64,000 nt of DNA from a virus. Taxonomy: Duplodnaviria; Caudoviricetes. Below, one piece after another: positions 15,244 to 58,982 of this stretch; within the stretch, counting starts at the first letter, position 1, and every line of letters starts with the position of its first letter. Below the pieces are notes generated by a model. The model was given only the letters and a program-made list of their open reading frames with translations, was not told where the DNA came from and did no database searches. The translations under genes were made by a program, and so were the position numbers. The stretch spans positions 55,579 to 119,578 of the IMG/VR virus record IMGVR_UViG_3300011008_000012, one strand, 5' to 3'.

Positions 15244-18200
15244 TCAGATAGAGAAGCCGAGGCACACGCCATAGTAGTAGCTCGCGTTGTTGTAGTAGAG
15301 GGCGCCGTAGTTGCTGACATACATGAAGTAGGTGGTGTTGCCAAGGTTGGGAGAGCGCTCCCACCAGCCGTTAGCACCGACCCAGCCGCCAACAGCGGAA
15401 GAGTCTCCAAAAGTGCCACTATCGGAAGTATAGGCAGGCGTGATGCCATATTGATCGAGCTCGTCCTGTTCGACAAACATGTATCCGATACTGCTATTGC
15501 CTGTATTGATCCAGATAGATCCAGTGCCAATGTCAGTAGAAAGATACGCCGCAGGGTCGCTCGCACAAGAGTAGATGTACGCATTGCCGTCATAGGCAGT
15601 GGTGTTGCCCGTACCAAGAGCGTATTTACGAATACGCCCACGCCACTTCAGGCGTTGCGCATTTGCGGTGTTGTATGACGAGATGCCAGAACCGCTCTGC
15701 TGTACGAACCACGGGATTCTCGGACTACTTGTATCTGCGCCAATTTCGTCGTTATACCCAGTACCAGAACCGCCAAGTTCGTAATAACTCGGTAGGTAAA
15801 CCTTGTCATTTGACGTGATGATCGATGTGCTTTGACTGCCTGCCGTCGCATTGATTTGCACGGAACGTATAATAGATCTCCACTCTATGGGCAAAGCACG
15901 GAACAGGCGGCCATTGCAGAATGCACGCATCTTGGAATTCTCCCAGCCCGTTGAGTTATCATTGCTTGAGTTCATGTAATAGCCGCGTTTATACAACAGG
16001 TTATTCGCTATGAAACTGGCGTTTGACACGTTACCGGAACCGTCGGCGTATTCATATTTGCCCTCGCCCCAATACTCCATGCGCACGACCTCGTGCGGCC
16101 ACTGAGCAAGAGCAAAAGCGTTGTAGTCTCCGATATCGTCATACCAGATCTTCATCCAGTGGATGTGGCCTGTGCCATAATTCCTGTAAGTATTGGATGT
16201 GGTATGATAATTTACAGCTCCAAATGTCACTGGTTCGTTGCTGGTTACATATGTAGTGCGCGTAAGCATCGTCTTACTGACATTGGTGCTGAACAGACTG
16301 CTGTTACCTGTTCCGCTTGCCGCGTATACATATAGTGCTGAGCTGCCGGACGGGTGTCGGAGTACGACAATATCCCTGTTGCCTCCGCTAGACCCTACAT
16401 AAGTAGTCTTATCGCCCCACTGGATCGTTGGTGCTGTGCCGTCATAGTAGAGACGGAAGTTCGACGTACTGCCGTAGTTGGCAGAGAGCAGCGTCATACC
16501 GGAGGTCGACCCAATAAAATCAAAGTCGATCGCCATGGTGAATGCAGGAGAATCATCGTCGAAAAGAACGATATTGGATAGGTAGTATGTACTGCCGTCG
16601 AAATAGTACCCGCCGCTCAGATATTGATCCACAGCTACACCTGTAAGCGAAAGCGTAGACTCGGCACTATCGCTGTAATATTTCGGCCCGATAGTGATAC
16701 TGTCCACATTGCTGAAAATGCAGTCTGTACCAAGCTTGATATCCGTATAGTCAAGATCCTCAAAATAAGAGCTCTGTAGACCTGCCTTACCTATACCGTA
16801 AATCTGAGAGACCGTCATGTCGCTCATGTCCGTACCCTGGGCGGGGAGCGCGGCATTGGTAGCAATCCAGTCAGCATACACATTCACATCGCCCGTTATA
16901 AATCCTGTGCTCTTATCCCAGCTGCGGAACACACGGAATGTGTAAGAGCTCTCGTCATCCGCAAACGTGGGCAGGGTTGAGTCGTTTATTACGTCCTCGT
17001 ATGTGGCCGTAGACCACACAGAACCGTTTGAATAATAGATCTGTCCTGTCGCATAATTCTGGTAATACATATCTGCATAGTCAGCCGCTGCATATCCCGC
17101 AGCCGCCGGGGTTGTGCTGCCATAGCCTACGCATATATTACTGTCAATATAGTCGATACACCCACCATATGGCACCCCACTCACAGTGAGGAAGGTTGTG
17201 CCTGCGTCGCGGTACCACTTCACTGTGTATGTGCGTGTAGTAGTGGTATACTCAGCTGTCACGTTGCGGTTGTAGCTCATGACAGTTGTGATATCATCCC
17301 ACCCGGAGAATGTATAGATGTACTGCGCTGTAGACGCCATTGCGGGCGTAAGAATATCTGCATTCGCTACAGTGCTCCACGATGTACCATCCGAGAGATA
17401 GATCGCTCCGGTTGAAGTGTCCTGGTAGTAATCGCCATTATAACTGGATGCATCATATCCGGTTGCAGCCGGTGTGCCGCTATCTGACACAGTGATAGTA
17501 TAGCCCATAGTAATTGGGTCGTAAGGGGCACTGCCTACATCAACCCACTGTGTATAGGCAAGACCGTCTGTATCCAGAATTGCAGTTCCGTCTGCATTAA
17601 GGAATGTTGCAAGATACTGTGTTACCATCGTCCCATAGGTAATTTCTAAATACGGCCAAACCGTATTATACTTGGAAAGCTGGCTCTGACGCATCGTGGT
17701 GACGTATGCATCGCCCGTGAGCACAGACTGTGTAATGTCATAACCGTCGTCATCAATACCGGCCATGTCATATACTGATTCGAGGTCGGTAGTATTTGAC
17801 AATGACCAATCCATACCGATTAGGCGTGTGCGGGAGAGGTTGGGACACGACTGAATAAGGTTCAGAGCGATATCTTTCGTCCCGTGTGTGGTCGTTGTGC
17901 CGGCAATAGTTAAGGCGGCACTGCTGTCGAAATCACAGTTCTCTATGCGCAGCGTTGTCATGTTGGCGGCACTGCCGAGCGTAAGGTCTTGGAGGTACAT
18001 GAGTTCACGCATCGTCAGTGATGTGGGGTTCTGTAAATGGGCGGTTTCCAGTAACCCTGCGGTAGCAAAAGTAACGCCCGTAAAAGCTGTATTCTCCAAG
18101 TATACTTCAGACAGCGATACGCAACCAGACAGATCGAGAGCGCCCGTCACATTCGGGCAATTGCGCACGTCGAGATATTCCAGCATCGTATTGCTGCCGA

Positions 18201-21200
18201 TAGTCAGACTCTCAAGATTGTCATTCTGATAGCCGGTCAGACTGGAGCCAATCTCAAGCTGCTGCAAATTCGTTCCCATCGCAAAGTTGTTTTGCTTAAA
18301 GTAAAGGTGTGCCAGGTCACCGAGGGCTGTAATCATGGGAGCCGTGCAGAAGTACAACTCCGTTTCGCCCATCGAGCCAATTGTGGAGAAGTCCATGGTA
18401 TATGTGGTTCCGCGCTGAGCCCGTGTTTTTGCCACTACGTTATAGCTTGTGGACGCCACCACGATATAACAATCGATGTACATAGATACGGTTGCTGTAT
18501 TTGCCGGAGGCACCACTGTGATAGTAGTTCCAGATGTCGGCGTATTACCACGCACCATGATATTCTGCGATGTGCAGAAGTCGCTCACATATTTCGACGC
18601 ATAATAGTATGCATTGTATGTCTTGACCTGTTCGCGCTGATGCGTTTTTCGGCCTGCCAGCATAGCAATGTATGTTACTGTGCCATTATCTTCGTATGGG
18701 CGCAGATACTTACGCTGGGTATCGGCAACCCACAGCCGCTCAGGCCGTGTATTCTGCCAATCCTGAACCTTTGTAAGGAAGTTTGTCGTGCTGAAGCACC
18801 CGGCGCTTTCGCGGTTGCGATACATCGTCTGGCACGCGCCAAACAGCCCCCTGGTGAACGTGATCCATGCCGCGTCATGAGCATTGAATACGTAACTGCT
18901 GCCGGATTGGTCATCCGTTTCCATACCATATGTGAAGGACAGACCGCCGACATTATCGTTGCCCAGCGCCGTATCGTTATCATAATCCTTCGACGGCTCC
19001 CAGTGCACCAGGTCGTCAGAAGACCAGAAGGTATTCTTCGCAACGTTATCCGTCATAAGGAAAGATTCGATAAACACGAAATGGTAGATAACGGGGTCCA
19101 TTATCATGTACTCCTCACAGTGTTCCAGCAGATAGGCCATGCGGTAATTAAAGCTGTCGGTGGTGTATGTTCCGGCATAATCACTGATCGTTGTTCCGGC
19201 GAGCACATTCGCCGTATCAGCAGACCAGGTAAGTGTGCCGATAGAAGTCCATGTTGTGCCGTTGCTTGAGTAAATATTGTTATTCGAATAGTTGATGTAG
19301 TAGTAGCTCGTTTCCGCACTGGCGTCCGTAACATAATCTCCCGCAGAGTAAATACCGCTGTTATATGCGGTAGGAAGCCCGTAGCCGTACAAATACACGA
19401 CGTTATCATCGTCGTAAGAGCTGGTGTCATACGAACCGGACCCACGGAACGTATAGCTGCCAAATGTTACTGAAGAGGCAAGTGCATTGTTGGTCGCGAG
19501 ATTCGGATTATAATCATACATAAACGATACAAACCGATCCCATGCGGATTTTGCAATATCAACCGAGTCGTCGTCTACGTAGCGGAATTCGAATACCTTT
19601 TGTTCCTCTCCGTCTTCGGTAACAACCGCCTCGTCGTCTCCGTTCCACGTATAGGTCTTGGAAGACATCAGGCACGGGGTAGAGGTGTTGTTAGATACCT
19701 CGACACAGCACGCAAGAGGATTTGTGGTGTCATGGAACACCTCTGTGTTCTTTTTGCTGTTGCCCATATCGCATATGCCGTACAGGTGGTATCCTGTCGT
19801 GTCGGAAAACAGATTGCCGCTTCTGTCCCGGATAAAGATAGCGCCCGGCACAAACTCAATCGTGTCTCTCGCCATGGCATTTTTCTGTTTGGCAGGGGAT
19901 ACCCATGGCTGGTATGTGTTATACCAATCCGCTATGCATGCGTTGTTGGCGTTTTCAGATGAGGCGACATTCAATTTCACGTTGAAATAATCAACTGCGA
20001 TAGAGTCGTCTGTCATACTATATCCCGTGGTGGATGTTGACCCGTCATCAAAGGAAATAGAACCTGTTGTGTAGGACACGTTGTCAGATGTGAACGTCCG
20101 GTTATACTTCATGTTGATATCCACGTTACCGGCAGACTCCAAATAACCGACAGAAGATGTGCCCTGAATGGTAACACACGCATTGTTTACGGTGAAGCAA
20201 TGGCTCGAGCCGCCCGAGTTATAGATATGTCTGGCTGTGTAAGCGACGACATTATCCTTCTTACCTGTGCTCATACGATTGAGATCCAGAAGGATCACAT
20301 GCAGATTAGGGTTCTGCGTGGCAAGTTTTGTATAGTCGATCTCGCCTGAGGCGTTCAAAACATCATTACGATCATAGCGATCAACCATTTCATAGGCATT
20401 CGGAGCGTCCATAATGAAGTTGGACAGCTCGTTATCATTTGTGAGGTAGGTTGGATACGCTTTAACCATGTAGATATATACATCGCAGTCGGCAGAGCCG
20501 ATGGTAATACCGACAGGAGTGACCTGCTGCATACCGTCGTCAGCGGAATACAGGATATTTCGGTCGTGTGAGCCATCCATCCAGAATTGCAGGTATCTAT
20601 ACTCGCTCGTTGGGTGAATGTTGGTCTCAAATTCGATATATATGTCCTTGCAATATAGCGTTTCGAGCGATTCATTGGCCGTTGTCAGCACGGCGTTATT
20701 TGCTGTCATAACAAGACCGACGCCGTTATTGCCTGCAGAGTTGTCCATACAGCTCAGAACTTGAGCGTCATAAGTGCGGCAGTTTACCGCTTTGAATACG
20801 AACTTGAAGTTTTTGCCATACTGCTTGGGGTCATAATCCTGCCCGAACAGGTTATAGTTGAACGTCATTGTCGTCCCGGCCCGTACGCAGAAATATTGAC
20901 GGAGATGCCCGTCGTCATCGTATTCGGTGTGAAGGCCGCCGTTTACCCAGTCAAAGTTGTTGGAAAAGGTGACGTCGACTGTCTGCTGCACGCTGCTGCC
21001 TACTGGTGTATAAGACCCACTCCATGCTTGCACGGAGGCGTTGGTCGCCATTTCAGACGCCTTAAATCGGAAATCGTAACCAGTAACCTCTGCTTCGTCG
21101 ATATCCAGCTCCGCCACCTCAATAGTGATAGTCTTCATAGTAGACCCACAAGTGATCGTAAGAGTTTTCGTCCCATAGGTAGTTGGTGAATAGTTCCAAT

Positions 21201-23949
21201 AATGTACCGTTCTGTCAACGCCTGTCCATGTAGACACGAGAGTGCCGCCTTCGTACAGATATACTGTAGTAGTCGTACTGCTGGGGTCATATACGACAAT
21301 AGGAATTTGTACGGTATTATATTGCGTCATTTCCGCCGTATTGAAGGATGTGGCGATAATAGGCGTTGTTGTACCCGACACAATAAATACCATGTCATGC
21401 ACTTGGAGTGCGGTTGTAATCGTCGTACCGCTGACCGTAGCCGTCATATAGCGAACGACAGCATGAGACCCATGGGTCTGCGCCGGGATCGTCAGAGCCT
21501 GCTGAACACCGGAGCGCGTAGTGGTAGTGACATCCAGGATGTAGCCCGTGCCGCTCACATAGTCGCCGGCTGTCTCACTCCAAACATAATGAGTATAAGT
21601 GTCTGTCTGCGAATCGTACAGGAAGTAGTTCGCGTCGGCGTCGAAGTCATCATCCGAACTGCCTGGCAGAGAGTCAACTATGACAGGATTAAACCCAACC
21701 GGCTCGACATCGATAAATGTATAAATCGTCTTCGAAAGAGCGCCGTATGGTGTATAATAATCCGTCACAGCCGATGTGTTGATTTGGCTGTCCACATAGT
21801 TCCATGTGAAGTACATGTTGATGGCCGTTACAGTCCACGTCTTCGTGGCGACAGTGTTGCTTTCTCCGCCGGTATCGACACTCACGCTGATCTTAACTGT
21901 GTTATCTCCGACAGTGAGGTACTCTCCTACGTCGATTGTGTTTTGTGTACCGGCAATGCTGGTTGACACGGATATGCCGGTGGCAACAGCGACATTGTTA
22001 ACATAAAGAGTACCGGAACCAGACCCCACTGCGTCTCCGCTGGAGTCAGAAGCAGCGACGGTATAAGTGATATCACATGAGTCGCCATACACACACTGCA
22101 CAGTAGAAGCAGTGACTCTGCCGATAGTAACCGTGCCGCCGGTTGTACCGCCACTCCCGCCGCCGCCGGTGATCTGGACGGCGAGGTCTTCGAGCTCGTC
22201 CCCGTTTGAATCGTAGAAGTGCAGCGTATAATCGTCATCCACGTTATAGGCTGTACTGTCGATATCAATACCGTTGTCCAGTGTCAGCGTGGTCGTGGAA
22301 TCGTCTTCGTAGGTGACAGTGATAGTAGTCTTATCCGCGCTGATTGTAACATCTTTAACCAGATTAGCCATATTGGAGATCGTCGTTTGCAGCGAGGAAA
22401 TGGTTCCCTCGGCCTCTGTTAGACGGTCATCAATGCCTGTACCAGACTCGTTGTTCAGCATGTCGTCGATGCTGGAGTCAATCAGCGCCTGAATCTCTTC
22501 CTGAGTATACGTAACAGTGCCGATAGGCTCATACTTGCCGTCGATATAGCGATAGTGGATATAAGAGCCGTTGGCGTCCCTGATGTAATAGTCTGAAAGC
22601 TCGCTTGCGGTAGCCAGAGTTTCAACTGTCGACCAGGTGGTGCCGTTTGACAAATAGGTCTGCAAGGTCGTAAGGTTTAGATAATACTCCCCGCTATAAT
22701 CAGCGGCCTCGTAGCTATTAGCCGTTGGCGTGCCATAACCACTGATGGCGATAGAATAGGATGGTGCTATAACTTCGGCAGATGACCCAGCTACAAGCTC
22801 CCAATTATCGTCGATGTACTTGTAGTACAGGTATCCGTTGTCTGTTGCCAGAATATAATCTGTGTCCTCATTTGGGTCGGTTACATCTTCCAGGTCGTCG
22901 ACAATAACTGTAGAGGAAGCGCCGAATGTGTCCCACGTTCCATCTACATACCAATACTTCTCGTAATTATAATAGCCGGAGCTATTATCGCGTGGTACGA
23001 GGTAGAATGTATTGGCGGCTCCAGCTCCCTGCATAAGAGCATCGAGCTCAGCCTGCGTGACAACCTGAATCGTAATGGGGCTATAAGACGCCAATACACC
23101 GTTAGTGTACGCGGTAGACATAGCAAAGACGCCCTGGAGCGCCGCATCAAGACCGCCATAAGAGTAGGTAGTATCGTCGACGCCGACCACATCAAATGTC
23201 TGTGTGCTAGAGTTAACGGTGACGCCAGCGCCACGGATGCGCTGAATCGTATTGGTATCCTGCCCAACAGCGTAGGAGAAAATATCTGTCTTGCGGCCTG
23301 TTGTGTCATAGGTAGCTTCCCAACTACCCGTCGTCGGCGTAGAGGTCGTAGACTGGCTCTTCGGCCATGCGTTATCGGCATTGTCAAGCGATGCCTGCAC
23401 ATCGGCAGAAAGCTTCTCTTTTGTCAGTGAACCATCGGTGATTGTCATACGTGCAAGGTCGCCGTTTTCGAGATACCCGTCCAGCACGTCTGTGATCTGC
23501 TGTTGAATCACTTCGGCGTAATCACTGTCAGCGATATCCAGCAGCTCGTCTACCATATCTACGAGCTGGTCATACAGGGATTGTGTTATCTCTGTACTGG
23601 AAGCATCAGCGATTAATCCGCTCGCATCAATGGTGAAGGTCAATACATTAGTCGTCGCGTGAACAGTTCCATCTGAAGCATACAGCATAAGTGTAACGGA
23701 ACCGCTGACGATCTCGGATGGGAGATAAACGCTGCGCGTCGCCGCGTCAAGATATACATTGTACGCCGTACCATTTTGCGTGAATTGAGCGAATACGGTA
23801 GCATTCGTATTCGTGCTCGGCATCAACGCGCTCCAGTCTTCATCCAGTGTAAACTCGAACTTGATAAACTCCTGCGTACCGGCGACGAGATTCTTCAAAT
23901 TGGTCGCAACACGAAGTTTTTGGCCGTCAACCGAGATAGGAATATTCAT
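15244..23949 (-). CDS. giant tail fibre / receptor-binding protein, the DGR target (C-terminal C-type-lectin/DUF6273-like domain)
   Basis: 2901 aa. BppU-like N-terminus, LRR-like segment, CotH-like motif, and C-terminal WWERSP...GVCLGFSI containing VR. Confidence 0.88.
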   Translation of the reverse strand: MNIPISVDGQKLRVATNLKNLVAGTQEFIKFEFTLDEDWSALMPSTNTNATVFAQFTQNGTAYNVYLDAATRSVYLPSEIVSGSVTLMLYASDGTVHATTNVLTFTIDASGLIADASSTEITQSLYDQLVDMVDELLDIADSDYAEVIQQQITDVLDGYLENGDLARMTITDGSLTKEKLSADVQASLDNADNAWPKSQSTTSTPTTGSWEATYDTTGRKTDIFSYAVGQDTNTIQRIRGAGVTVNSSTQTFDVVGVDDTTYSYGGLDAALQGVFAMSTAYTNGVLASYSPITIQVVTQAELDALMQGAGAANTFYLVPRDNSSGYYNYEKYWYVDGTWDTFGASSTVIVDDLEDVTDPNEDTDYILATDNGYLYYKYIDDNWELVAGSSAEVIAPSYSIAISGYGTPTANSYEAADYSGEYYLNLTTLQTYLSNGTTWSTVETLATASELSDYYIRDANGSYIHYRYIDGKYEPIGTVTYTQEEIQALIDSSIDDMLNNESGTGIDDRLTEAEGTISSLQTTISNMANLVKDVTISADKTTITVTYEDDSTTTLTLDNGIDIDSTAYNVDDDYTLHFYDSNGDELEDLAVQITGGGGSGGTTGGTVTIGRVTASTVQCVYGDSCDITYTVAASDSSGDAVGSGSGTLYVNNVAVATGISVSTSIAGTQNTIDVGEYLTVGDNTVKISVSVDTGGESNTVATKTWTVTAINMYFTWNYVDSQINTSAVTDYYTPYGALSKTIYTFIDVEPVGFNPVIVDSLPGSSDDDFDADANYFLYDSQTDTYTHYVWSETAGDYVSGTGYILDVTTTTRSGVQQALTIPAQTHGSHAVVRYMTATVSGTTITTALQVHDMVFIVSGTTTPIIATSFNTAEMTQYNTVQIPIVVYDPSSTTTTVYLYEGGTLVSTWTGVDRTVHYWNYSPTTYGTKTLTITCGSTMKTITIEVAELDIDEAEVTGYDFRFKASEMATNASVQAWSGSYTPVGSSVQQTVDVTFSNNFDWVNGGLHTEYDDDGHLRQYFCVRAGTTMTFNYNLFGQDYDPKQYGKNFKFVFKAVNCRTYDAQVLSCMDNSAGNNGVGLVMTANNAVLTTANESLETLYCKDIYIEFETNIHPTSEYRYLQFWMDGSHDRNILYSADDGMQQVTPVGITIGSADCDVYIYMVKAYPTYLTNDNELSNFIMDAPNAYEMVDRYDRNDVLNASGEIDYTKLATQNPNLHVILLDLNRMSTGKKDNVVAYTARHIYNSGGSSHCFTVNNACVTIQGTSSVGYLESAGNVDINMKYNRTFTSDNVSYTTGSISFDDGSTSTTGYSMTDDSIAVDYFNVKLNVASSENANNACIADWYNTYQPWVSPAKQKNAMARDTIEFVPGAIFIRDRSGNLFSDTTGYHLYGICDMGNSKKNTEVFHDTTNPLACCVEVSNNTSTPCLMSSKTYTWNGDDEAVVTEDGEEQKVFEFRYVDDDSVDIAKSAWDRFVSFMYDYNPNLATNNALASSVTFGSYTFRGSGSYDTSSYDDDNVVYLYGYGLPTAYNSGIYSAGDYVTDASAETSYYYINYSNNNIYSSNGTTWTSIGTLTWSADTANVLAGTTISDYAGTYTTDSFNYRMAYLLEHCEEYMIMDPVIYHFVFIESFLMTDNVAKNTFWSSDDLVHWEPSKDYDNDTALGNDNVGGLSFTYGMETDDQSGSSYVFNAHDAAWITFTRGLFGACQTMYRNRESAGCFSTTNFLTKVQDWQNTRPERLWVADTQRKYLRPYEDNGTVTYIAMLAGRKTHQREQVKTYNAYYYASKYVSDFCTSQNIMVRGNTPTSGTTITVVPPANTATVSMYIDCYIVVASTSYNVVAKTRAQRGTTYTMDFSTIGSMGETELYFCTAPMITALGDLAHLYFKQNNFAMGTNLQQLEIGSSLTGYQNDNLESLTIGSNTMLEYLDVRNCPNVTGALDLSGCVSLSEVYLENTAFTGVTFATAGLLETAHLQNPTSLTMRELMYLQDLTLGSAANMTTLRIENCDFDSSAALTIAGTTTTHGTKDIALNLIQSCPNLSRTRLIGMDWSLSNTTDLESVYDMAGIDDDGYDITQSVLTGDAYVTTMRQSQLSKYNTVWPYLEITYGTMVTQYLATFLNADGTAILDTDGLAYTQWVDVGSAPYDPITMGYTITVSDSGTPAATGYDASSYNGDYYQDTSTGAIYLSDGTSWSTVANADILTPAMASTAQYIYTFSGWDDITTVMSYNRNVTAEYTTTTRTYTVKWYRDAGTTFLTVSGVPYGGCIDYIDSNICVGYGSTTPAAAGYAAADYADMYYQNYATGQIYYSNGSVWSTATYEDVINDSTLPTFADDESSYTFRVFRSWDKSTGFITGDVNVYADWIATNAALPAQGTDMSDMTVSQIYGIGKAGLQSSYFEDLDYTDIKLGTDCIFSNVDSITIGPKYYSDSAESTLSLTGVAVDQYLSGGYYFDGSTYYLSNIVLFDDDSPAFTMAIDFDFIGSTSGMTLLSANYGSTSNFRLYYDGTAPTIQWGDKTTYVGSSGGNRDIVVLRHPSGSSALYVYAASGTGNSSLFSTNVSKTMLTRTTYVTSNEPVTFGAVNYHTTSNTYRNYGTGHIHWMKIWYDDIGDYNAFALAQWPHEVVRMEYWGEGKYEYADGSGNVSNASFIANNLLYKRGYYMNSSNDNSTGWENSKMRAFCNGRLFRALPIEWRSIIRSVQINATAGSQSTSIITSNDKVYLPSYYELGGSGTGYNDEIGADTSSPRIPWFVQQSGSGISSYNTANAQRLKWRGRIRKYALGTGNTTAYDGNAYIYSCASDPAAYLSTDIGTGSIWINTGNSSIGYMFVEQDELDQYGITPAYTSDSGTFGDSSAVGGWVGANGWWERSPNLGNTTYFMYVSNYGALYYNNASYYYGVCLGFSI
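15251..15397 (-). repeat. DGR variable repeat (VR) at the 3' end of the tail fibre gene
   Basis: Matches TR except at adenines. An inverted repeat TCTATCTGAAA/TTTCAGATAGA (15229-15252) spans the stop codon. Confidence 0.97.
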
Positions 23950-31512: not shown

Positions 31513-34500
31513 CTATATTTTTATGCTATACTTATTAAGAGAGCGAGAATCCACCATCTTACCAAGACTCATGGACGCGATAAGCTTTTCAAACTTCGAG
31601 TCGCTTTGCATCTGACGAAGCATGTCGTTATAGTCCTGAACATGGTCGATCTCGATTGTAACGTTAATGTCTCCAATACTGGAGCTGCGATTGGCGATGT
31701 TCGGGCGATGAATACCCAGAGGCATATCCCCACGCAGCGAACCGATGAGCCCACTGGATAAAGCGGACAACACAGATGCAGCCGAAGCACTACCAGAGAT
31801 AGCGCCCTTACCGCGCAAGAGATCCAACAGGGCGGAGAAGTTTTTCGTGTCCTCTGCATCAAGGATACCCTCAGGCTTATCGGGCGAACCGTCCACCCAG
31901 GCAAGGCCGGTGTAATCTGCCATACCACCTGTCTTGTAACCTTTGAACTTCTTCCGCATTTTGCTGTAAGAATAATTGGCCGCTTTAAGGCTGTTCTTGG
32001 TCGCATACGCGGCCACAGCTTTTGCGCCCTTACCGACGATAGCCTGGATACCATTATCCGTACCGAAAACCTCTTCCAGAAGTTTCTTCCTGGTAGCACC
32101 AGAACCCCAGCCTTGACCACCGTTCCAGATCGCATAGGCGACGCCGTATTTGATCTTTTCAGTCAACTTGGGCGTGGTCGTTTTGTTTGTCTTATCGGTC
32201 TGATTCTTATCTTTGGTTGTATCTTTGCTTGAAGTCGTGGAGGTGGAAGTGGTTGACGGAGCCGACTCGGTGGACGTCAGCTGCCCGATGGTAGCAGCCG
32301 CCTCGTTGTTGCTAGCCGTAACCATCTCCTGAACATTGGCACTAATATCGTTGATAGCCTTTTCTGTCGTGGTTTCCTCGCCTGAATTGTATTCGGTTAC
32401 TGCCAGCTTGTTAAGATTCTCTGCGGCAGTCTTCCAAATAGCGCCAAGGGTACCATCCGCTGTGGATATCTTGTAGCCATCTTCTTCAGCGGCCGACTTC
32501 AGCGTGTTCCAGATACCACCGGAATTCTCGTTGACGGCGGTGATCACGTCTCTGATCAGTGCGTCTGTTTCATCCAACCGTTTGGTGAGAGTCGCCTCAT
32601 ACTCCGTATACAGATCGTCAAGCAGCTGTTTTTGATCCTTGATATACTGCTCGTACTGCGTTTCCTGAAGTTTCTCCTGCGCCTCTGCAAGACTTGTATT
32701 GAGCTTTTGCAGACGAGCCCGGTTCTCCTCTGACGTATCACCGGAGTAAGCGGAGAGCTGCTTCTGGATTTGTGCTACGTTCTTCGTTTGCTCGGCAATC
32801 TTTTTCTGATAATCATATAGGGACTTGGCAGAATCTAGACTTTCCTTATAGGTGTCTATCAGGTCTTTCAGCGAGGAGAGTTCGAGATTGATACCCTCTT
32901 CCACAAGGGAGACGATGGCGTCTTTCTCTCCCTCAGCCGCGAGAATCGACTTCTGCTGTAAGTCGATCAGCTCTTCGCGGCGCTCAATCAGGTCCGTATT
33001 ATTCGGGTCTTTTGCTATCTGCTTTGTGAGTTTTGCAATCTGCGTGGCGTAATCGTCCGCCTGCCGCATATACACGTCGTAGTTTGTGCTGTGCAAGCCC
33101 ATAGTAGCCATACCAGCGTCTGTGAGCTGTCCATTTTCTGTAAACAGCTTGGAGTGGCTGAGCAGGTCAACCATGAAGCTAGCCTCAGAGGAAATGCGGG
33201 AGATACGCTCTTCCAGATAGTCGAAGTGGCTCCAGTCGTTCTCGCGAGCTTGCTTGTTGAACTCCGCCATATTTGTCTCGGCTTGCTGAATTGACTCGGC
33301 AACGGCATTGATATTCTGTTGCATAGCGTACCAAGCTTCAGAGTACTTCTTGATCTCACCGCTTGCCACCGCCGCGTCTCTCGCCGCCGTCAGCTGCTGG
33401 AACTCTTGGTTGAGCACGTTGAGATTCTTTTTCTCCTGCTTCGCCATCTTCGTATAGTATTTCGACGAGACGAGTCTGCCGCGTGCCTCCGCATTGTCGA
33501 TAGCGCCGTCAAGAGTGTTGGTCACATGCTCAAAAAGACTAAGACGATCCTCAAAATTGGTTTGAATATTATTGAAGTTATCCTGATACAATGAGCCAAG
33601 CTTCTCGTGCAGATCGACAGCGGCATCCGAGCACTCTTTGCTCTTCTCATACCACTGCTGATACTCCTGAATAAGTTCTGCGGTTGCATCATCGTACTCA
33701 TTGATATCAATTGTTCCTTCACGAACACGCTTCTTCAGGTCGTCTGATAGCCCAACAGACTCCGCCTGCTTCATATAACGAGCGGCGGCCTTCTCGTTCA
33801 GGGCGAGCATGTTGTTGACTTCGCCGATTTCTTTGTTTGTGTTCTTCAGTCGCGTAGAGAGAGTTTGGAAGGAACTACTCGCCTTTGTCGCCAGCTTTGA
33901 GATCTTCTTATCCAACCGATCGATAGCGATCTCGATCCAGTCAATGACCTCCTTGGCGTCGTCGGCCGCCTTGGTGCTGCTATTGCCGCCGCTGGTAGTG
34001 GCGGCCCCGCTGTTGCCGGAATAACTTGATGTGTAGCTGCCGAGATTGGCGCTGGAGGTCAAGGCGGGCAGAGTCGCCTGGCTTGTAGTGGGCGTTGATC
34101 TGCCGCCGGAGTCCGTCATCAGCGTATTGACGGTGCCAATCGGGTATGCTCGTCCATGTCCGGCATGACCCGTCCGGAGAAGACCTTCCGTTTGCGCGTG
34201 GTTGAAAATAATATCGCCCTTGTCAATGCCGATGAACTCAGCTCCATTATTACCTACTGTGCGCCATTCGCCGCTTGAAGCATCGACGTATAGTTCTCTG
34301 CCTTTTTCGCCTACCAGAACACGGCCGCCTTGTTTTGCCCCCATCGTGCCGGAGGCCATGGCGTTGCCATTGACTTGCGCTTCACGATGTACTGTGTTAA
34401 TATAGGTTGTGACCTGCCTGTTTTCGAGAGCATTTAAGCGGCTATTTAATACGTCGAGCTGCCCCATGCCGGAAACATTAACATCGACGTCTACTTTCTT

Positions 34501-36984
34501 CCCTTCGGTCTCTTCGATGTTTTGTTGCAGTGCGTCGGTGGCTTCGTTGGCCTCTTCTGTACTGACTTGCATATCAGTCTGGAGATCATCCGGAACAACT
34601 TCTGCCCAATTAATGTCAGCGACCTGACCATACTCCTTGATCATCGCCGCAAGCTCTTCACGGCTCATATGCATAACCTGGGCGAAGGCATCAAATGCGT
34701 CGTTGTCGGCTATCGACAGGGTCACCTCATCGCCAACACGGTCAATTTCTACGCCGACCTCAGAAAGCTCATCCTTGAGGGCTACGGCGCTATCGATCCA
34801 ATTCGATAACCCCTTTGTGCCATACCGGTCATCTGTCGCTCCGTCATACCATGCCTCACGTTCGGCGATCAGTGCCTCCAGCTGTCTGGCGGCACTCTCC
34901 AAGCCTTGTGAGAAGTCTATGAACTGCGTAAGCCCCATCTTCTCAGCGATATCCCACGTTTTGGCTTCGGAGCCGATAATCCCCTTACCGAGGAGTTCTT
35001 CCATTTCCTCAACTGCTTCGGCGTAGGTGATGTATTCGTTATTGGTATCGGCGCTCAGAGATTTCTTTAGCTCGTCGGCGGCCTCTTCTACGCCACGCAT
35101 AGAGTCGGCAAGCATACCATAGTGTTCTGCAAGCTCGTCAACCGGGTCGACGGGTAGGTTACGGGCGGCATTGATGACACTCTTCAACGCGGTCGTCTGC
35201 TCGTCGGTCAGGTCGGCTGTTTTAGCAAAATCTTCCAAAGACCTGATGAAGTCATCCGGCGATTCACGCAATAGCTTCTTTAAGCCTTCTTCAAGATTTC
35301 CGAAGCCTTCTGCTTCCGCGTCAATATATTCCAGAAGCTCAGGGAACTGCTGAACTAGCTCAAAGACACCCTCCGGCGTTATGTCGCCATTTCGCAGATC
35401 AACCAAAGCGGTAGTCAATGTATCGATGTCCGAGGTAAGGGTGCCAAGCCCTTCAAGTGTTTCTGAGAGCCTAAGGTTGTCATACTCATGCCGAATGGCT
35501 GCGACGCTTTCTGCGACGCCCATATTGGCAAAATCGAGGTTTGATGCTGCCTCTGCGACGAGATCGAGTTCGTCGTCGCCTATCTCTCTGATCCACGACA
35601 AAAGCTCGACTCCGAACTGCTCCTTTAAGGTCGCAAGCGCTTCAGACCCGTATCTGCCAGCTGTTTTGGCCGCGCCATTAGAACCGGCAAATATGTCCCA
35701 AATATCGTCCAGCGCGTCCGTGAGCTCTTCGGATAACCCAACGAATTTATTTAGTTCTTTTTCCGCAGGCTTGGCCTCGTCGGCAAGAGCCTTAAACCCG
35801 TCCGCGATTTGTCCTATAGTCCATCCGGCAAAACTAAAGCCGTTTCCAGAGAAAAGATCGTAAAGCTGTTTAACGTCTTCGGGAGACATATCGCTGACAA
35901 ACTCGTCCCATGCGGTGCGCCACTCGTCAAGCGCCTTTGCCGTCTGACGCTCGGTCATCCCCTCGGTATCGATACCGCCGAGGACGCTTTCCCACATCTG
36001 CCGTATAGCCTCATCGACGTTGATTATACCGATGTTGCTATTGATCGTATTGGCAACAGCTTCCGCAAAGTCCTCGCCGGTCTCCATGCCGGCTTCAACA
36101 GCGGCCAGCTTCAGAACACTTTCGGGAAATAGTTCAGATACATCTTCGGCGCTGATACCGTTGTTCCCGGTTGCCTTCTCTTTGAGCGCATCGATAAACG
36201 GCTGATTCATTGACCCAGATATGAAGTCGTCGACAGCCTTCTGGGCATCACGAGCAACCTCTTCTTCGGTCTTGGTGTAATCGATAATCTCTTTAATCTG
36301 GTCAAGCCAATCTGCGTTGGCCTCTGGAGCCAAAGAGAGAGTTGAGTAGATGCTGAGCAGCGTATCAAGATCCTCAGCAAGAAGCTCGCGATACTCATCG
36401 GCACCATCGTTGACCATCTCCTGCTCGAACTGGATCTTTTCCAACAGATTCATATTCCGCAGGACCGACGTTCCTTCGCCTCGTGCAAGGCTATAATCTA
36501 TCCCAACATCAACAACTTGAGTTTTTGACAATAGTTTTCGCGCGTCGTCTATTGCCTCTTGTTGTTCAAGAGCTGCTATCTGTCGTTTTAGCTCTAACTG
36601 TGATTCAAGGTCTGAGTTCGCCGTTTCAAGCCGACTAAGTTCCTCTTGCTCAACGAGTGTGAGTCCGCCCTTGGCATTCAACTCGTCGATTCGCGTCTGT
36701 GTGGTGTTTAACTCAGAATTTAGACTCTCTATATCAGACTGTGCACTGTCATAAGCAGCCCTGGATTTCTCCGCTGCTTTCTTGGCCTCATTAAAGGATA
36801 CTATAAGCGCATCAACAATTTTTACAACGCCTACTATCAGGGATGCTGCGGCGACAAAGCCAAATATTCCCGTCGATAGCGCACCCATTCCTTCTGCTGC
36901 GAGGTTAGCCGCTGTGGCAAGATCTTTAATGGATGTAACTCCAGTTGCAAGCCCACTTGTTGTAAATAGAGCGCTTAATGTTTG
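31513..36984 (-). CDS. tape measure protein, exon 2
   Basis: More than 1800 helical codons with LVGEKGRE...GAEF and YKTGG...AWVDG motifs. No SD at its TTG; in phase with exon 1. The 5' boundary is inferred. Confidence 0.85.
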   Translation of the reverse strand, partial: QTLSALFTTSGLATGVTSIKDLATAANLAAEGMGALSTGIFGFVAAASLIVGVVKIVDALIVSFNEAKKAAEKSRAAYDSAQSDIESLNSELNTTQTRIDELNAKGGLTLVEQEELSRLETANSDLESQLELKRQIAALEQQEAIDDARKLLSKTQVVDVGIDYSLARGEGTSVLRNMNLLEKIQFEQEMVNDGADEYRELLAEDLDTLLSIYSTLSLAPEANADWLDQIKEIIDYTKTEEEVARDAQKAVDDFISGSMNQPFIDALKEKATGNNGISAEDVSELFPESVLKLAAVEAGMETGEDFAEAVANTINSNIGIINVDEAIRQMWESVLGGIDTEGMTERQTAKALDEWRTAWDEFVSDMSPEDVKQLYDLFSGNGFSFAGWTIGQIADGFKALADEAKPAEKELNKFVGLSEELTDALDDIWDIFAGSNGAAKTAGRYGSEALATLKEQFGVELLSWIREIGDDELDLVAEAASNLDFANMGVAESVAAIRHEYDNLRLSETLEGLGTLTSDIDTLTTALVDLRNGDITPEGVFELVQQFPELLEYIDAEAEGFGNLEEGLKKLLRESPDDFIRSLEDFAKTADLTDEQTTALKSVINAARNLPVDPVDELAEHYGMLADSMRGVEEAADELKKSLSADTNNEYITYAEAVEEMEELLGKGIIGSEAKTWDIAEKMGLTQFIDFSQGLESAARQLEALIAEREAWYDGATDDRYGTKGLSNWIDSAVALKDELSEVGVEIDRVGDEVTLSIADNDAFDAFAQVMHMSREELAAMIKEYGQVADINWAEVVPDDLQTDMQVSTEEANEATDALQQNIEETEGKKVDVDVNVSGMGQLDVLNSRLNALENRQVTTYINTVHREAQVNGNAMASGTMGAKQGGRVLVGEKGRELYVDASSGEWRTVGNNGAEFIGIDKGDIIFNHAQTEGLLRTGHAGHGRAYPIGTVNTLMTDSGGRSTPTTSQATLPALTSSANLGSYTSSYSGNSGAATTSGGNSSTKAADDAKEVIDWIEIAIDRLDKKISKLATKASSSFQTLSTRLKNTNKEIGEVNNMLALNEKAAARYMKQAESVGLSDDLKKRVREGTIDINEYDDATAELIQEYQQWYEKSKECSDAAVDLHEKLGSLYQDNFNNIQTNFEDRLSLFEHVTNTLDGAIDNAEARGRLVSSKYYTKMAKQEKKNLNVLNQEFQQLTAARDAAVASGEIKKYSEAWYAMQQNINAVAESIQQAETNMAEFNKQARENDWSHFDYLEERISRISSEASFMVDLLSHSKLFTENGQLTDAGMATMGLHSTNYDVYMRQADDYATQIAKLTKQIAKDPNNTDLIERREELIDLQQKSILAAEGEKDAIVSLVEEGINLELSSLKDLIDTYKESLDSAKSLYDYQKKIAEQTKNVAQIQKQLSAYSGDTSEENRARLQKLNTSLAEAQEKLQETQYEQYIKDQKQLLDDLYTEYEATLTKRLDETDALIRDVITAVNENSGGIWNTLKSAAEEDGYKISTADGTLGAIWKTAAENLNKLAVTEYNSGEETTTEKAINDISANVQEMVTASNNEAAATIGQLTSTESAPSTTSTSTTSSKDTTKDKNQTDKTNKTTTPKLTEKIKYGVAYAIWNGGQGWGSGATRKKLLEEVFGTDNGIQAIVGKGAKAVAAYATKNSLKAANYSYSKMRKKFKGYKTGGMADYTGLAWVDGSPDKPEGILDAEDTKNFSALLDLLRGKGAISGSASAASVLSALSSGLIGSLRGDMPLGIHRPNIANRSSSIGDINVTIEIDHVQDYNDMLRQMQSDSKFEKLIASMSLGKMVDSRSLNKYSIKI

Positions 36985-37048
36985 CTTGAGTATCAAATAA
37001 TTTGTCGATATATATTTATGGATACATATCAATTTGGAGGGTGATTAT

Positions 37049-37685: not shown

Positions 37686-37940
37686 CTAAAACTCTTTGTG
37701 GGCATTGTTCTCATTGTCAGGAATTCGTTGAGCTAACGGACATTGATAACATACCGAAAGAGCTCTTTGTATAAGTCCCGGGATATCGGCCTTTGGGTCG
37801 ATAGTATGGTCGTCGTCATAATAGAACCTAAACGCCTTGTGAACTCTATCGCAGTAAAATTGCATCTGAGTATACCCGTAATAATCGCCGCCTCCCCAAT
37901 GGGTGATTTCCGGCGTAGCGAATTTTTCATAACAATTCAT
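37686..37940 (-). CDS. hypothetical protein (cargo)
   Basis: 84 aa; GAAAGGA SD. Confidence 0.55.
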   Translation of the reverse strand: MNCYEKFATPEITHWGGGDYYGYTQMQFYCDRVHKAFRFYYDDDHTIDPKADIPGLIQRALSVCYQCPLAQRIPDNENNAHKEF

Positions 37941-38203
37941 AAAACCATCCTTTCATTCGTATACCCGCTCAGGTATTAAACGTGAATTATTGAACGTTAG
38001 TATACCGGAACGGGTATAATATGTATTATATTGTTTTTATCCCATCCATAAAACCAGTCAAGGGATTGTGACCGCATTGTTATTCAAACTCTATACTGCT
38101 TCTGAAATTGGACTTTCATGCCGGTCTCTCACCGGCGAGCATAGAACCGATACAGTCTAACAAAGAAAGCTATATCGGCAATTCCGACTGTCTCTCACAC
38201 TAT

Positions 38204-38232
38204 TTGACACATAATATGTATGGTGGTATTAT
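38204..38232 (+). promoter_or_regulatory. sigma70/sigmaA promoter for micropeptide A
   Basis: TTGACA-17 bp-TATTAT with an extended TG. Confidence 0.8.
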
Positions 38233-38312
38233 GACCTTGCGCATTTGACTCTCTGTCGGCTTAGTACGTTTGACAACGGGACGGAACCGCCGTCCAGAGA
38301 GGAGTGATTAGC

Positions 38313-38405
38313 GTGAAGAAGGTCATCAAGACCACGGTTAAGGTTGAAACGAAAGTGAAAACCAAAGCCGTCTCAAGGGCGCAAGTCCGAGTTCGACGCG
38401 GTTGA
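38313..38405 (+). CDS. basic micropeptide A (MKKVIKTTVKVETKVKTKAVSRAQVRVRRG)
   Basis: AGGAGTG SD and GTG start; own promoter upstream and terminator at 38415-38447. Confidence 0.7.
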   Translation: MKKVIKTTVKVETKVKTKAVSRAQVRVRRG

Positions 38406-38544
38406 TCCGTGCGCCGGGACGTGTATTGGCGCGTCCCGTTATTTTTTATGTGTAAATAGTGAACCTCCTTACAGTCTGTGAGCCTTCCCGTTCATCACAA
38501 ATTCCAACGTGATGCAGTCCCCAGACGAAAAAGATTTGTATGTC

Positions 38545-38573
38545 TTGAAATAAAACTACGTCTGCTGTATTAT
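38545..38573 (+). promoter_or_regulatory. sigma70/sigmaA promoter for micropeptide B
   Basis: TTGAAA-17 bp-TATTAT. Confidence 0.72.
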
Positions 38574-38651
38574 TATTAACAGGCGCAACGAAATCCGGCG
38601 AAGAGAGATGTTGACGGCTTGACTCTCTAAGTCAGGAAAGTAGGTGATATA

Positions 38652-38729
38652 ATGGCGCAGATCAAAGTGAAAACCGAGATCAAGGTGAAAATCCGCACCA
38701 CGGTGCGGGTTGCCACCCGCTGCCGTTGA
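38652..38729 (+). CDS. basic micropeptide B (MAQIKVKTEIKVKIRTTVRVATRCR)
   Basis: AGGTGA SD and ATG start; terminator GGGAGTCAG/CTGGCTCCC + T-rich tract at 38740-38774. Confidence 0.7.
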   Translation: MAQIKVKTEIKVKIRTTVRVATRCR

Positions 38730-39010
38730 TCGGCGCTTAGGGAGTCAGTCACCGCTGGCTCCCGTCTTTATTTCATATACAAAATTTTTCGATAGGGGAG
38801 AGGGGCTTGGTTGCGTGATTGCCCATTGTATACGACCAGTAGCGTTATTGTTTAGCCTAGGCCAACCATCCACTTCTTTCCGCCTTTCGGCTCCTCTCGC
38901 GCTTGTCCGTTAGGGCTACGCTGTGGCAAGATGGTATTAGGGGTTCCCCGCAGTTTGAAGGTTTACGCAACGATGGGTTCACACCCATCGTGGGCAAATT
39001 CATTTGAACT

Positions 39011-40975
39011 ACCAAAATTGTGAATCAAAACGCCGATACCCAACCCGGCAATTGCTGTACCGAGTGGACCGAGCGCGGATGTAATATGTCCAATAGCTCC
39101 GGCAATGGGTTCTAGGAGTTCCAATACGTTGGTGCCAATGTCAACGATGCTATTTACAAAGCCGGAATCGATGGCTGTCCGGCTCAGCTCCTGGAGCGCG
39201 GCCTTGAATGTGTTGATATGCGCCGTCATGCTGTCCAGGAAGACGTCATACGCGCCCTCAAGTGCGCCGGCGCTGTCGGCCATAGCTTCCATGGCTCCGG
39301 TCGCTTCACCGAACTGCCCCATGAGGCTGCTGAACACGTCTTGCTGTCGCGTACCGGCCAAAGCAGTGGTAATGGCGGCTTTAACATCTGTGCTGAGTGT
39401 GCTCCACTTGTCCGCCAGATCACTTAAAACCTCGAACGGATTACGAAGTGCACCAGTTGCCTCCTGTAACTGAACTCCTCCGCTTGTAAGCGCGTCGATC
39501 AGTTCTTGGTACTTCGCCTCGTTCCATACCTCGCCAGTTTCTTCAATCTCTGTTTTGACATTTCTGAGTCTGGCAATGATCGTTCGCAGACCGGTGGAAG
39601 ATTTGGAAATATTCTGGACCGTTGTATTTGCGGCTGTCAGCATGGCTATCGACTGATCGATAGTCATTCCGGATTGAGCCATCATCGAGGAGGCATTGTT
39701 CATGCCCTCCGCAATCTGGGATACTGAAATGGGGAAGTTGTTACCAACTTTCACCATTTTATCCATGATAGACTCAATGTCTTCAACGCCCTTCCCATAA
39801 GCCTTGACGATAGCGGTTACAGCGTCAGATGCAGCCGACGGATCAATGTCGCCGACGTTTTGCAGCATAGCAGTAAATTTTGCCAGGTCATGGGATTCTT
39901 CCAGACTATAGCCAAGTCTTGAGTAAACCGTCGCCATGTTGACCAGATCGGTTATGGAGGCGCTCATATCCTTTGCCGTCTGAGCCATCGTGCTGCCAAA
40001 GCGGCTCATCGTCTCATTGTCCGCACTAGTTACGATCTGAAGCTGTGTATATGCGTCGTTCAGCTCGATGGCCGTACTGACCATCTCTTTCATTTGCGCG
40101 ATCGTAGATTGTATGATACGGAACGTGCTGAACGTCATGGCGACATATTGCGTCAGGCCAGCCTTCAGATTTCCAAAGAAAGCGGCAAGGCTCGATCCGG
40201 CGTTGTTTACGTTACCAGATATGTTGGTCACCTCGCTCCGTAGATGGGCGAGTTTAGCGCGGGCCTCATCCGCGGGCATTCCTTTAAGGTCTCCGGCAAG
40301 CCGTTCAAGGGCGGCTATGAGATTATTAACTTGCGCAACAGTTGACGGATCGGCGGCGCCTTTGCCGAGAGCAATCTTGTCTTGCAGTCCATGCAGCGTA
40401 TTTAACATGGTGCTGACCTGATTCAGCGCCTGATAGTACTCCGTCGTTCCCTCGGCGAGCATCCTAAACTCGTTCTTGGAACCGGCCTGTGTGAAGGTCA
40501 TCTTCCCGTTCGCCATGTTGTTCTTTAGTGAATCGAACTGATCCCTAAAATCCTTCATAGCGAGGTTCCCGCTTTCGATCTCGCTAAGGAGACCGGAGAA
40601 CGCGGTCTTCGCCCGGCCGAGTCCGGAGGTGTAGGCGTTTACAGAATCGCCCGCAAGGCCCTTCATCCTCTGCATCTCAAGTTCTACGTTGACAAGCTGA
40701 TTCATCACCTGTGTCGCTTCTTTGATACCGGCAGTTTGCGTTTTTATGTTTACGCTGCCGCCAGACACAGTGGCCTTCTTAACGGCGTCAAGGCTCTCAA
40801 TGGTGGACTTGATGTCATTGCGCAGCTGTTTGATCATTTTATCAGCGCCTTCAACGTCCAGCTCGACTTTGACTTTGAACGGCTTCAAACCGCCGATCAT
40901 AGTTTTGAGTTGACCTTCTATTGCGGCTTTACTTTCCTGATGGACACCAAACAGAAGTTCTACATCACCGGCCAT
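39011..40975 (-). CDS. tape measure protein, exon 1 (TP901-type core domain)
   Basis: TMP core motifs (Y.RLGYS, D....VGNNF, G..LRTI.ARL, LAG.RQ). Unspliced, the ORF reads 15 codons into the intron and stops at 38963. Confidence 0.9.
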
Positions 40976-56402: not shown

Positions 56403-56477
56403 TGGTGGGTTCTACCGGAATTGAACCAGTGTCCTCCGGGCTTCAACCGGATGCTTTACCAATTAAGCTAAGAGCCC
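56403..56477 (-). tRNA. tRNA-Phe(GAA)
   Basis: Cloverleaf GGGCTCT...TCCGG-TTGAAGC-CCGGA...TTCAATT...ACCA. Confidence 0.9.
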
Positions 56478-56573: not shown

Positions 56574-56659
56574 TGGTCGGCGACGTTGGATTCGAACCAA
56601 CTGAGCCTATGGCACCTGATTTACAGTCAGGACCGCTTCCTAATACGGTATACTCGCCG
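56574..56659 (-). tRNA. tRNA-Tyr(GTA) with an atypical acceptor stem
   Basis: CCTGA-CTGTAAA-TCAGG, long variable arm, GTTGG-TTCGAAT-CCAAC, ACCA end. Confidence 0.8.
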
Positions 56660-58220: not shown

Positions 58221-58982
58221 TTAATTGCTTCTAATTCGCATAACAGAATTGATCGTTTGTTGCAGATATATTTTATACGCACATTCACGACAGTATTTTC
58301 TCTTCGGTCCAGTTTTAGTTTCCCTATCATCGTGCGTTGTTAATCCACAATTTTGGCACTTATAATACTCTTTGCCGTGATACATGAGGTACTGGTATCC
58401 GAGATTGCGAAAATCATCTATACGGATGGCAGTTTCGCCATCTTTGATAAACAAAACCTGTACACTGAGGTTATCGATCTTCTTGGAGAAGCGGATGAGT
58501 CCAAGTTCGTGGAGCTGATTGAACATAGCGCTCTGCCGCTTGATGGACGTATTGATGTTCGCCATATTCATGATCTCGTTATCCGGCGTGCTCACCCAGT
58601 AATCTGTTTTCGGCGATACGGCGTAGAAGTATTTTGCCAGGCACAAGAGTGTAAAAGCCAAACGGCGAAGCTGCTTACCGTCGATCGCATCAATGGTCTG
58701 CATTTCATTCTTGGTGATCTCGATATCGTCAATCATAATGAGCTGATACTTTGTTGCGTACTTGGCCGCATTATCAAGCGTTCCCGACCATGTGACAAGC
58801 GATATATTCGGATCAACGGACAGGAGAAACTCGTCCAGTTTCGCCCGCACTTCCTTTTTGGAGAAACCTTTGTATGTATAGTACTTTGCAATCCGCGACA
58901 GTGTTTCAAACGGTTTCTTCCCGAGCTCCTTATCGGCGATGGCGTTTTCAGCCCACTCATACTCGTTTAATACGATACTCAT
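58221..58982 (-). CDS. hypothetical protein with a C-terminal zinc finger; candidate transcription factor for the phage RNAP
   Basis: wHTH-like segment and CQNC...CREC; coupled to the RNAP gene. Confidence 0.55.
   Translation of the reverse strand: MSIVLNEYEWAENAIADKELGKKPFETLSRIAKYYTYKGFSKKEVRAKLDEFLLSVDPNISLVTWSGTLDNAAKYATKYQLIMIDDIEITKNEMQTIDAIDGKQLRRLAFTLLCLAKYFYAVSPKTDYWVSTPDNEIMNMANINTSIKRQSAMFNQLHELGLIRFSKKIDNLSVQVLFIKDGETAIRIDDFRNLGYQYLMYHGKEYYKCQNCGLTTHDDRETKTGPKRKYCRECAYKIYLQQTINSVMRIRSN

Follow-up and report, generated by a model that had tools for sequence, protein, structure and literature searches.

Promoter-to-terminator cassettes with micro-open reading frames lie antisense in two loops of a predicted group I-type intron in a phage tape measure gene

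Among the known cargo of phage group I introns are homing endonucleases, whose reading frames lie in intron loops, as in the td, nrdB and sunY introns of phage T4 and the bnrdE/F introns of SPbeta. SPbeta also carries type I toxins, bsrG/SR4 and yonT/SR6. Between the conserved genes of temperate phages lie promoter-gene-terminator units called morons, described by Hendrix and colleagues. Here we describe two small cassettes from a tailed phage (Duplodnaviria; Caudoviricetes). They lie in a stretch of 64,000 nucleotides, positions 55,579 to 119,578 of IMG/VR record IMGVR_UViG_3300011008_000012 (hereafter the window), antisense to the tape measure gene and inside what is predicted to be a group I-type intron of that gene. 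Each unit consists of a promoter, a leader, a Shine-Dalgarno (SD) sequence, a very short open reading frame (ORF) and an intrinsic terminator. We favour, at a probability of roughly 0.55, the reading that the units are autonomous moron-type minigenes that the intron carries in its P6 and P8 loops and that would be transcribed by the host polymerase and translated into micropeptides.

The cassettes resemble morons in placing their own sigma-70-type promoter, here a match to the consensus, and their own intrinsic terminator around a single ORF. Likewise, they are present or absent among collinear relatives with sharp boundaries, in a phage that appears to be temperate. Unlike morons, they lie in loops of a group I-type intron and not between genes, they are always antisense to the late operon, their product would have only 24-30 residues, and inverted repeats at their ends could keep the RNA hairpin closed. 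ORFs of homing endonucleases also occupy terminal loops (P6, P8 and P9 extensions) with the catalytic core undisturbed, and may have expression signals of their own. In contrast to these, the cassettes contain no endonuclease domain and no Pfam or PHROGs match, encode 25-30 residues instead of 150-300 and have the opposite orientation; a cassette alone cannot explain mobility. To our knowledge, autonomous micropeptide genes that are driven by host promoters and lie backwards in ribozyme loops have not been described before.

An earlier note on this DNA, made from the letters alone, had proposed two parallel plus-strand units of about 240 bp. We found every element of both units where the note had placed it, and both micropeptide sequences agree with its reading of the ORFs. 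The start codon of ORF 1, however, is GTG, and the units are larger than the note had estimated, measuring 256 and 271 bp as insertions relative to L004, the closest relative. The parts of the two cassettes are as follows.

38202-38457, plus strand: cassette 1 (unit 1), 256 bp, in the P8 loop of the intron; limits from blastn against L004
38204-38232, plus strand: promoter 1, TTGACA-17-TATTAT with TG ahead of the -10 box; 11/12 consensus matches
38239-38312, plus strand: leader 1, about 74 nt; transcription start placed from the -10 box
38313-38405, plus strand: micro-ORF 1, GTG start, 30 residues, net charge +10; SD AGGAG at 38300-38304
38415-38448, plus strand: intrinsic terminator 1, 10-bp stem (38415-38438) and T run
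38522-38792, plus strand: cassette 2 (unit 2), 271 bp, in the P6 loop of the intron; limits from blastn against L004
38545-38573, plus strand: promoter 2, TTGAAA-17-TATTAT; 10/12 consensus matches
38580-38651, plus strand: leader 2, about 72 nt, with AGAGAG / CUCUCU; SD AGGTGA at 38642-38647
38652-38729, plus strand: micro-ORF 2, ATG start, 25 residues, net charge +7; homologues in L007 and L064
38740-38773, plus strand: intrinsic terminator 2, 10-bp stem (38740-38763)

In the predicted fold of leader 1, CUCUCUG (38249-38255) pairs with CAGAGAG (38295-38301), which overlaps the SD sequence AGGAG (38300-38304). Both terminators begin 9-10 nt past the stop codon and have GC-rich stems. The predicted transcripts of the cassettes fold far better than shuffled sequences, with z = -4.05 for unit 1 and -3.60 for unit 2. 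The units also have two words in common: TTGACTCTCT, at 38245 and 38619 with a third copy elsewhere on the minus strand (chance expectation 0.11), and AAAGTGAAAACC, at 38352 and 38664 only (chance expectation 0.01). Promoter-like sites matching at least 10 of 12 consensus positions are not rare by themselves, since both strands of the window hold 17 of them and shuffled sequences 14. The combination of two promoters, each 80-110 nt before an ORF with an SD sequence that ends 9-10 nt ahead of a strong terminator, is not chance; the same architecture recurs in other phages.

Homologous cassettes were found in two further phage lineages. One, in L007/L008, came to light when the gaps of related split tape-measure genes were scanned by composition. 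Its ORF of 24 residues, MAKITVKTKVKVTVKTTVKIRTRR, is followed by a 10-bp terminator; the cassette is antisense, lies 3' of P9 and adjoins the zinc-ribbon gene of the intron. Another came from an unbiased scan of all metagenome contigs of the Joint Genome Institute (JGI) with a back-translated 13-codon pattern, in which it was the single true match. This cassette, in L064 (L064 and L067 are the same phage), comprises a promoter TTGACA-17-TACAAT (11/12), a 74-nt leader, an SD sequence, a 25-residue ORF, MAKIKVKTTIKVTVRTTVRVVRRHR, and a terminator. It is antisense in the tape measure gene between group I-like elements, at a different position of the protein. Over L064 412-1688 (minus strand), which corresponds to L067 1980-4975 (plus strand), three or four such elements are clustered (40.7, 29.1, 27.0 and 20.5 bits), and two of them have nearly duplicate 3' ends and following sequences; the cluster could be a twintron or a product of tandem homing.

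The DNA of unit 2 is 80% identical to that of L064 from the leader into the ORF. Unit 1 shares with L064 the leader motif TTTGACAAC-GG, and with the other copies the N-terminal peptide pattern K-[VI]-x-[IV]-K-T-T-[VI]-K-V. The family thus consists of four copies in three SPbeta-like phage lineages, at four intron positions and all antisense, with a common layout: a predicted leader of 71-74 nt, an SD sequence, 24-30 codons and a terminator 7-13 nt past the stop. The common orientation is expected, since a terminator in the sense orientation would abort the late transcript. The cassettes are real and paralogous, as the earlier note had supposed, and they are conserved elsewhere. The note's further suggestion, that the presence of two diverged copies is a sign of selection, is not supported: copies are rare and sporadic, and the closest relative has none.

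Searches beyond these lineages returned nothing. Neither peptide had a tblastn match in 50,697 phage records (INPHARED), a search in which the low-complexity filter may have masked the queries, and a profile search of 1.84 billion protein representatives gave zero matches. Four back-translated patterns scanned in IMG/VR found no true match; the one candidate there, L066, was rejected as a chance match, and a candidate from the metagenomes, L065, was rejected as a low-complexity repeat within a longer ORF. A six-frame profile search of 32 related IMG/VR records, 14 metagenome-assembled genomes (MAGs) and 399 Clostridia genomes, the positive control for which worked on the phage's own genome, likewise gave no true match. 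No peptide window scoring at least 15 occurs elsewhere in about 1 Mb of related phage DNA in six frames, and the rest of the phage genome holds no further copy. Composition scans found no cassette in three more split tape-measure loci (L148-L150), nor in 80 loci around homologues of the zinc-ribbon gene, which also encodes an L7/L12-like domain and is present in 457 IMG/VR loci; we therefore rejected a functional link between the cassettes and that gene. In Rfam no family matches the cassette RNAs, and a 19-bit match to an L13 leader is just the terminator.

Codon-level comparison suggests that the ORFs encode peptides. A pairwise coding test was applied to the three ORFs of the unit 2 type (unit 2, L007 and L064). 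Each pair differs by 4-9 synonymous and 7-11 non-synonymous codons, and the differences between unit 2 and L064 fall 5, 5 and 13 times on the first, second and third codon positions. The peptide frame has ratios of non-synonymous to synonymous substitution rates (dN/dS) of 0.10, 0.34 and 0.42. Several of the exchanges between Arg and Lys take two or three base changes, and start, stop and length are kept. Among all frames the peptide frame on the plus strand has the highest BLOSUM scores and the lowest dN/dS, and two other frames hold stops. Thus the codon-level conservation that the earlier note had looked to is present, and the peptide frame is the best-conserved one. The mirror-image frames on the opposite strand are also open and hydrophobic, at 38261-38365 and 38627-38752 of the window (both minus strand; for example TLISVFTLICAIIS) and likewise in L007 and L064. 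They are probably a by-product of codon complementarity.

All four peptides are strongly basic (net charge +7 to +10), and Val, Ile or Thr make up 40-54% of their residues. Their hydrophobic moment peaks at exactly 180 degrees in 4/4 cases (0.66-1.03, with p <= 0.0035 against shuffles); at 100 degrees it is low. None of the peptides has a signal or a membrane segment. The earlier note had called them amphipathic cationic beta-strand peptides. The cationic character and the beta-type periodicity stand, whereas the strand itself does not appear in an AlphaFold2 model, to which we return below. Designed (Val-Lys)n beta-hairpin peptides and (VK)8 chains (PMC9652226) share with them the strict alternation of Val/Ile/Thr with Lys/Arg, the high beta-strand propensity and the high positive charge. 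In contrast to the designed sequences, the cassette peptides are natural and gene-encoded, each in a predicted phage transcription unit of its own.

The insertion points of the cassettes were located by comparison with relatives. The tape measure protein of most relatives in IMG/VR is a single frame of 2000-2600 residues. In the window it is represented by two frames 1.9 kb apart, which are collinear with the uninterrupted protein save for about 16 residues that are unaccounted for. L004, which is 53% identical in the N-terminal part of the protein, has the same intron and neither cassette; cassettes are also absent from L006, L012 and L013. The tape measure frames, the parts of the intron and the gene it carries are as follows.

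38963-40975, minus strand: N-terminal tape measure frame (exon 1 and read-through into the intron), 670 residues; PhageMin_Tail PF10145, E = 1.6e-27
31513-37032, minus strand: C-terminal tape measure frame (exon 2), 1839 residues; tblastn with L015 aligns residues 1161-1307 to window 36975-36553
38793-39019, minus strand: 5' part of the intron, P1-P5 and the 5' arm of P6; 85% identity to L004 4382-4606
38458-38521, minus strand: intron core between the cassettes, P6 3' arm, P7 5' arm, P3' and P8 5' arm; 97% identity to L004 4608-4671
37939-38201, minus strand: intron core past cassette 1, P8 3' arm, P7', P9 onward; 73% identity to L004 4678-4927
37034-37615, plus strand: antisense gene of the intron, with a SHOCT helix, an L7-L12 C-terminal domain (PF00542, E = 2.3e-13) and a C-terminal zinc ribbon

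In blastn of the minus strand of the window against L004, three collinear blocks (39019-38793, 38521-38458 and 38201-37939) delimit the cassettes. Window positions 38201 and 38458, on either side of cassette 1, adjoin in L004 save for 6 nt, and positions 38521 and 38793, on either side of cassette 2, are only 1 nt apart there. Intron helices P1-P9 were assigned by aligning the cassette-free intron of L004 to the Rfam group I model, and this alignment places the two insertions in the hairpin loops of P6 and P8. The placement in two different loops, antisense to the tape measure gene, is therefore as the earlier note had it. Inverted repeats bracket cassettes 1 and 2 and the L064 cassette; those of cassettes 1 and 2 take in the -35 region at one end and the tail of the terminator at the other. 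By virtue of these repeats, the intron RNA could still close the interrupted hairpins. A transposon or miniature inverted-repeat transposable element (MITE) was considered and rejected, since the repeats at the ends are not the same from copy to copy and the target shows no duplication.

We regard a putative group I-type intron of about 2 kb, predicted to splice, as a well-supported reading of the interruption. An intron in the RNA polymerase gene of jumbo phage SaP7, with 51.9 bits on the Rfam group I model, has a core to which window 38804-38897 is 78% identical. Furthermore, group I introns lie at the ends of N-terminal tape-measure frames in other relatives (51.4 bits in L148 and 40.1 bits in L149). 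Other tail genes of relatives hold group I introns above the gathering score (71-73 bits), and L043 additionally has a RAGATH-18 RNA (59.8 bits); the stretches concerned are L006 836-1166, L012 927-1255 and L043 10145-10462 and 2855-2915. One relative (L009 7897-13896, L011 3201-8156) is arranged differently: behind its 631-residue N-terminal tape-measure frame come other genes over 6 kb or more (DUF2513, Bro-N, ANT and three minus-strand ORFs), in place of a simple intron.

We propose the following course of events for the favoured reading, in which the units are minigenes carried as cargo. A host promoter of the sigma-A type would drive each unit antisense to the late operon, and transcription, stopping at the unit's own terminator, would give a structured mRNA about 200 nt long. 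Its translation would yield a peptide of 25-30 residues with net charge +7 to +10 and a strict two-residue, beta-strand-type amphipathic periodicity. The cassettes would come and go as discrete modules, at different places in different introns; the inverted repeats at their ends would let the intron RNA close the interrupted hairpin, and the intron loops would offer places within an essential late operon where insertions are tolerated. RNA made by heavy late transcription across the intron would be fully complementary to the cassette mRNAs and would silence them, thus restricting the peptides to lysogeny or early infection. Composition, together with the lack of a signal or membrane segment, suggests that the peptide would act in trans on a polyanionic target, most likely RNA, with the membrane in second place. 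It is also known that basic proteins serve group I introns as RNA chaperones.

The nature of the phage bears on when such promoters might be active. The source record is a complete IMG/VR phage genome of 119.6 kb with terminal repeats. The tail genes of its relatives are of the SPbeta type (YomU, YomV, YomW, YomX and YonB families), the window encodes a tyrosine integrase (8393-9595), and the closest genomic relatives were found in gut MAGs labelled Clostridia or Oscillospiraceae. Judged by these genes and relatives, this is a temperate SPbeta-like phage of anaerobic gut Firmicutes (gut Clostridia), its temperate character following from the integrase. Expression in the lysogen from host-type promoters is therefore plausible.

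Several observations weigh against the minigene reading. The L007 promoter is non-canonical: TTGACA is present, and no good -10 box lies at 17 nt. Cassettes are known from three phage lineages only, and the comparative statistics come from alignments of 24 codons. The peptides belong to no Pfam or PHROGs family at E <= 10, save for one chance match of 10.9 bits, and to no PADLOC family, and no database suggests a function for them. The antisense frame has the same wobble phase as the peptide frame, is open in all copies, reads hydrophobic and has a dN/dS of 0.31-0.75, so that this measure separates the two frames by a factor of 2-3 only. RNAalifold predicts a hairpin within the ORF with one or two compensatory changes, as well as pairing between leader and stop codon; the hairpin implies that some constraint may act on the RNA. 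AlphaFold2, given the four-sequence alignment, models peptide 1 as a single helix (predicted local distance difference test, pLDDT, 86) and not as a strand, although we consider a helix predicted for a 30-mer weak evidence either way. On the side of the intron, the window's own copy scores 12.4 bits on the Rfam group I model, and the cassette-free intron of L004, aligned to the full length of the model, scores 28.3 bits (E = 4e-5), both under the gathering score of 50.

It is possible, though on balance unlikely, that the RNA is the product and the ORF acts in cis. Slow translation of alternating bulky and basic residues would then set the lag of the ribosome and hence the formation of the terminator, a notion that agrees with the position of the stop codon, 7-13 nt ahead of the terminator stem in all copies. 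In human cells nascent chains of the (Val-Lys)8 type slow ribosomes and destabilise mRNA (PMC9652226). This slowing has been shown for eukaryotic ribosomes only, however, and both the period-2 amphipathicity and the Arg/Lys exchanges are conserved beyond the need of a merely slow ORF. Furthermore, neither terminator is followed by a plus-strand ORF with a family match, the regulated gene that a ribosome-mediated attenuator (leader peptide) would call for; what lies there is antisense of the intron core and exon 1. On this view the intron and tape-measure pre-mRNA would be regulated in antisense, by read-through or by the RNA itself, which could bring about RNase III cleavage or prevent P6 and P8 from folding and so suppress leaky late expression in the lysogen. 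Every cassette does point to the 5' core of the intron and exon 1; leader and ORF are strongly structured (z = -4.05 and -3.60), the pairing of the leader's TTGAC with the stop region is partly conserved, and the ORF hairpin shows compensatory changes. Yet the antisense RNA is complementary to the inserted cassette alone and not to ancestral intron sequence.

A bolder proposal, to which we give little credence, is that the basic peptide, the complementary mRNA or both bind the intron RNA and decide the folding and splicing of the 2-kb intron. If this were true, the cassettes would be a new kind of cargo that acts on the ribozyme hosting it, in effect a mini-maturase or anti-maturase working in trans from genes that lie backwards in the P6 and P8 loops, and production of the tape measure protein, hence virion assembly, would depend on the state of host transcription and translation.

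Equally doubtful is an addiction module resembling type I toxin-antitoxin systems, in which a toxin repressed by its leader would be countered by the abundant intron RNA or another antisense RNA as antidote, stabilising the intron or the prophage. The cassettes share several traits with the type I toxin mRNAs of prophages (bsrG/SR4 and yonT/SR6 of SPbeta, and hok/sok): they are short, with a strong consensus promoter, a tiny ORF and a location in a prophage, and their long leader is predicted to fold partly over the SD sequence and to take part in 5'-3' pairing. Predicted folds, from 3-4 sequences only, pair part of the SD and start region with the leader or the 3' end of the ORF. The peptides, in contrast to those toxins, are not hydrophobic; they lack a membrane segment, carry a charge of +7 to +10 and alternate polar with beta-branched residues, and neither PADLOC nor Pfam gives a match. 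No dedicated gene for an antisense small RNA was found, and no minus-strand promoter of at least 10/12 lies in or beside the cassettes. The late operon, the one source of antisense RNA, is silent in the lysogen, which is the wrong timing for an antidote.

We consider it very improbable that the true frame lies on the tape-measure strand, encoding a small hydrophobic peptide with a basic N-terminus and about 20 hydrophobic residues, with the Lys/Val ORF as its mirror. Antisense frame 1 is indeed open in 4/4 cassettes and reads hydrophobic, and its wobble positions coincide with those of the plus-strand ORF. But its openness is explained by the plus-strand frame lacking Tyr, His and Gln codons; neither a start codon nor an SD sequence is conserved for it, its dN/dS (0.31-0.75) is 2-3 times higher and its BLOSUM scores are lower than those of the plus-strand frame, and promoter, SD sequence and terminator all serve the plus strand. 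We give just as little weight to the notion that the cassettes now do nothing, being either remnants in decay or look-alikes that arose by chance, since, despite their very rare and sporadic distribution, their absence from the closest relative and the equal frequency of promoter-like sites of at least 10/12 in shuffled sequence, the four copies keep promoter position, leader length, SD sequence, ORF length, peptide pattern and terminator at a synonymous divergence (dS) of 0.8-2.1.

Other contents of the intron and the window are noted here. The SHOCT/L12/zinc-ribbon gene has the same orientation as the cassettes and is upstream of both, and homologues occupy the equivalent intron position in L006, L007, L012 and L013. 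Its relatives occur in 457 IMG/VR stretches, mainly from phages of 90-250 kb. Between this gene and the intron core, an ORF of 84 residues lies on the intron strand (37686-37940, minus strand) and has no Pfam, PHROGs or PADLOC match. Elsewhere the window codes for an anaerobic ribonucleotide reductase, a reverse transcriptase and a YonO-like polymerase of the RNA-dependent RNA polymerase (RdRP) family. The last, an 892-residue protein (58979-61657, minus strand), matches the eukaryotic-type RdRP family (PF05183, E = 3.5e-11) and probably transcribes late genes as a single-subunit RNA polymerase like YonO. The reverse transcriptase (12560-13849, minus strand; PF00078, E = 1.2e-17) lies near a frame of 2901 residues at 15244-23949, and may be part of a diversity-generating retroelement that targets a tail protein. 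Two tRNA genes lie on the minus strand at 56406-56477 and 56579-56657 (64.5 and 31.2 bits), of which the second combines a long variable region with mismatched positions in its acceptor stem.

If the peptides of the minigenes are made, they would form a new phage protein family, its members very small, strongly basic, beta-patterned and missed by gene callers. They would also offer a natural test case for peptides of alternating bulky and basic residues in bacteria, be it in RNA binding, membrane activity, self-assembly or the slowing of ribosomes. The sense/antisense relation of cassette and intron makes a simple candidate switch between lysogenic and lytic expression. The loops of the intron, for their part, would be safe landing sites for accessory genes within an essential late operon.

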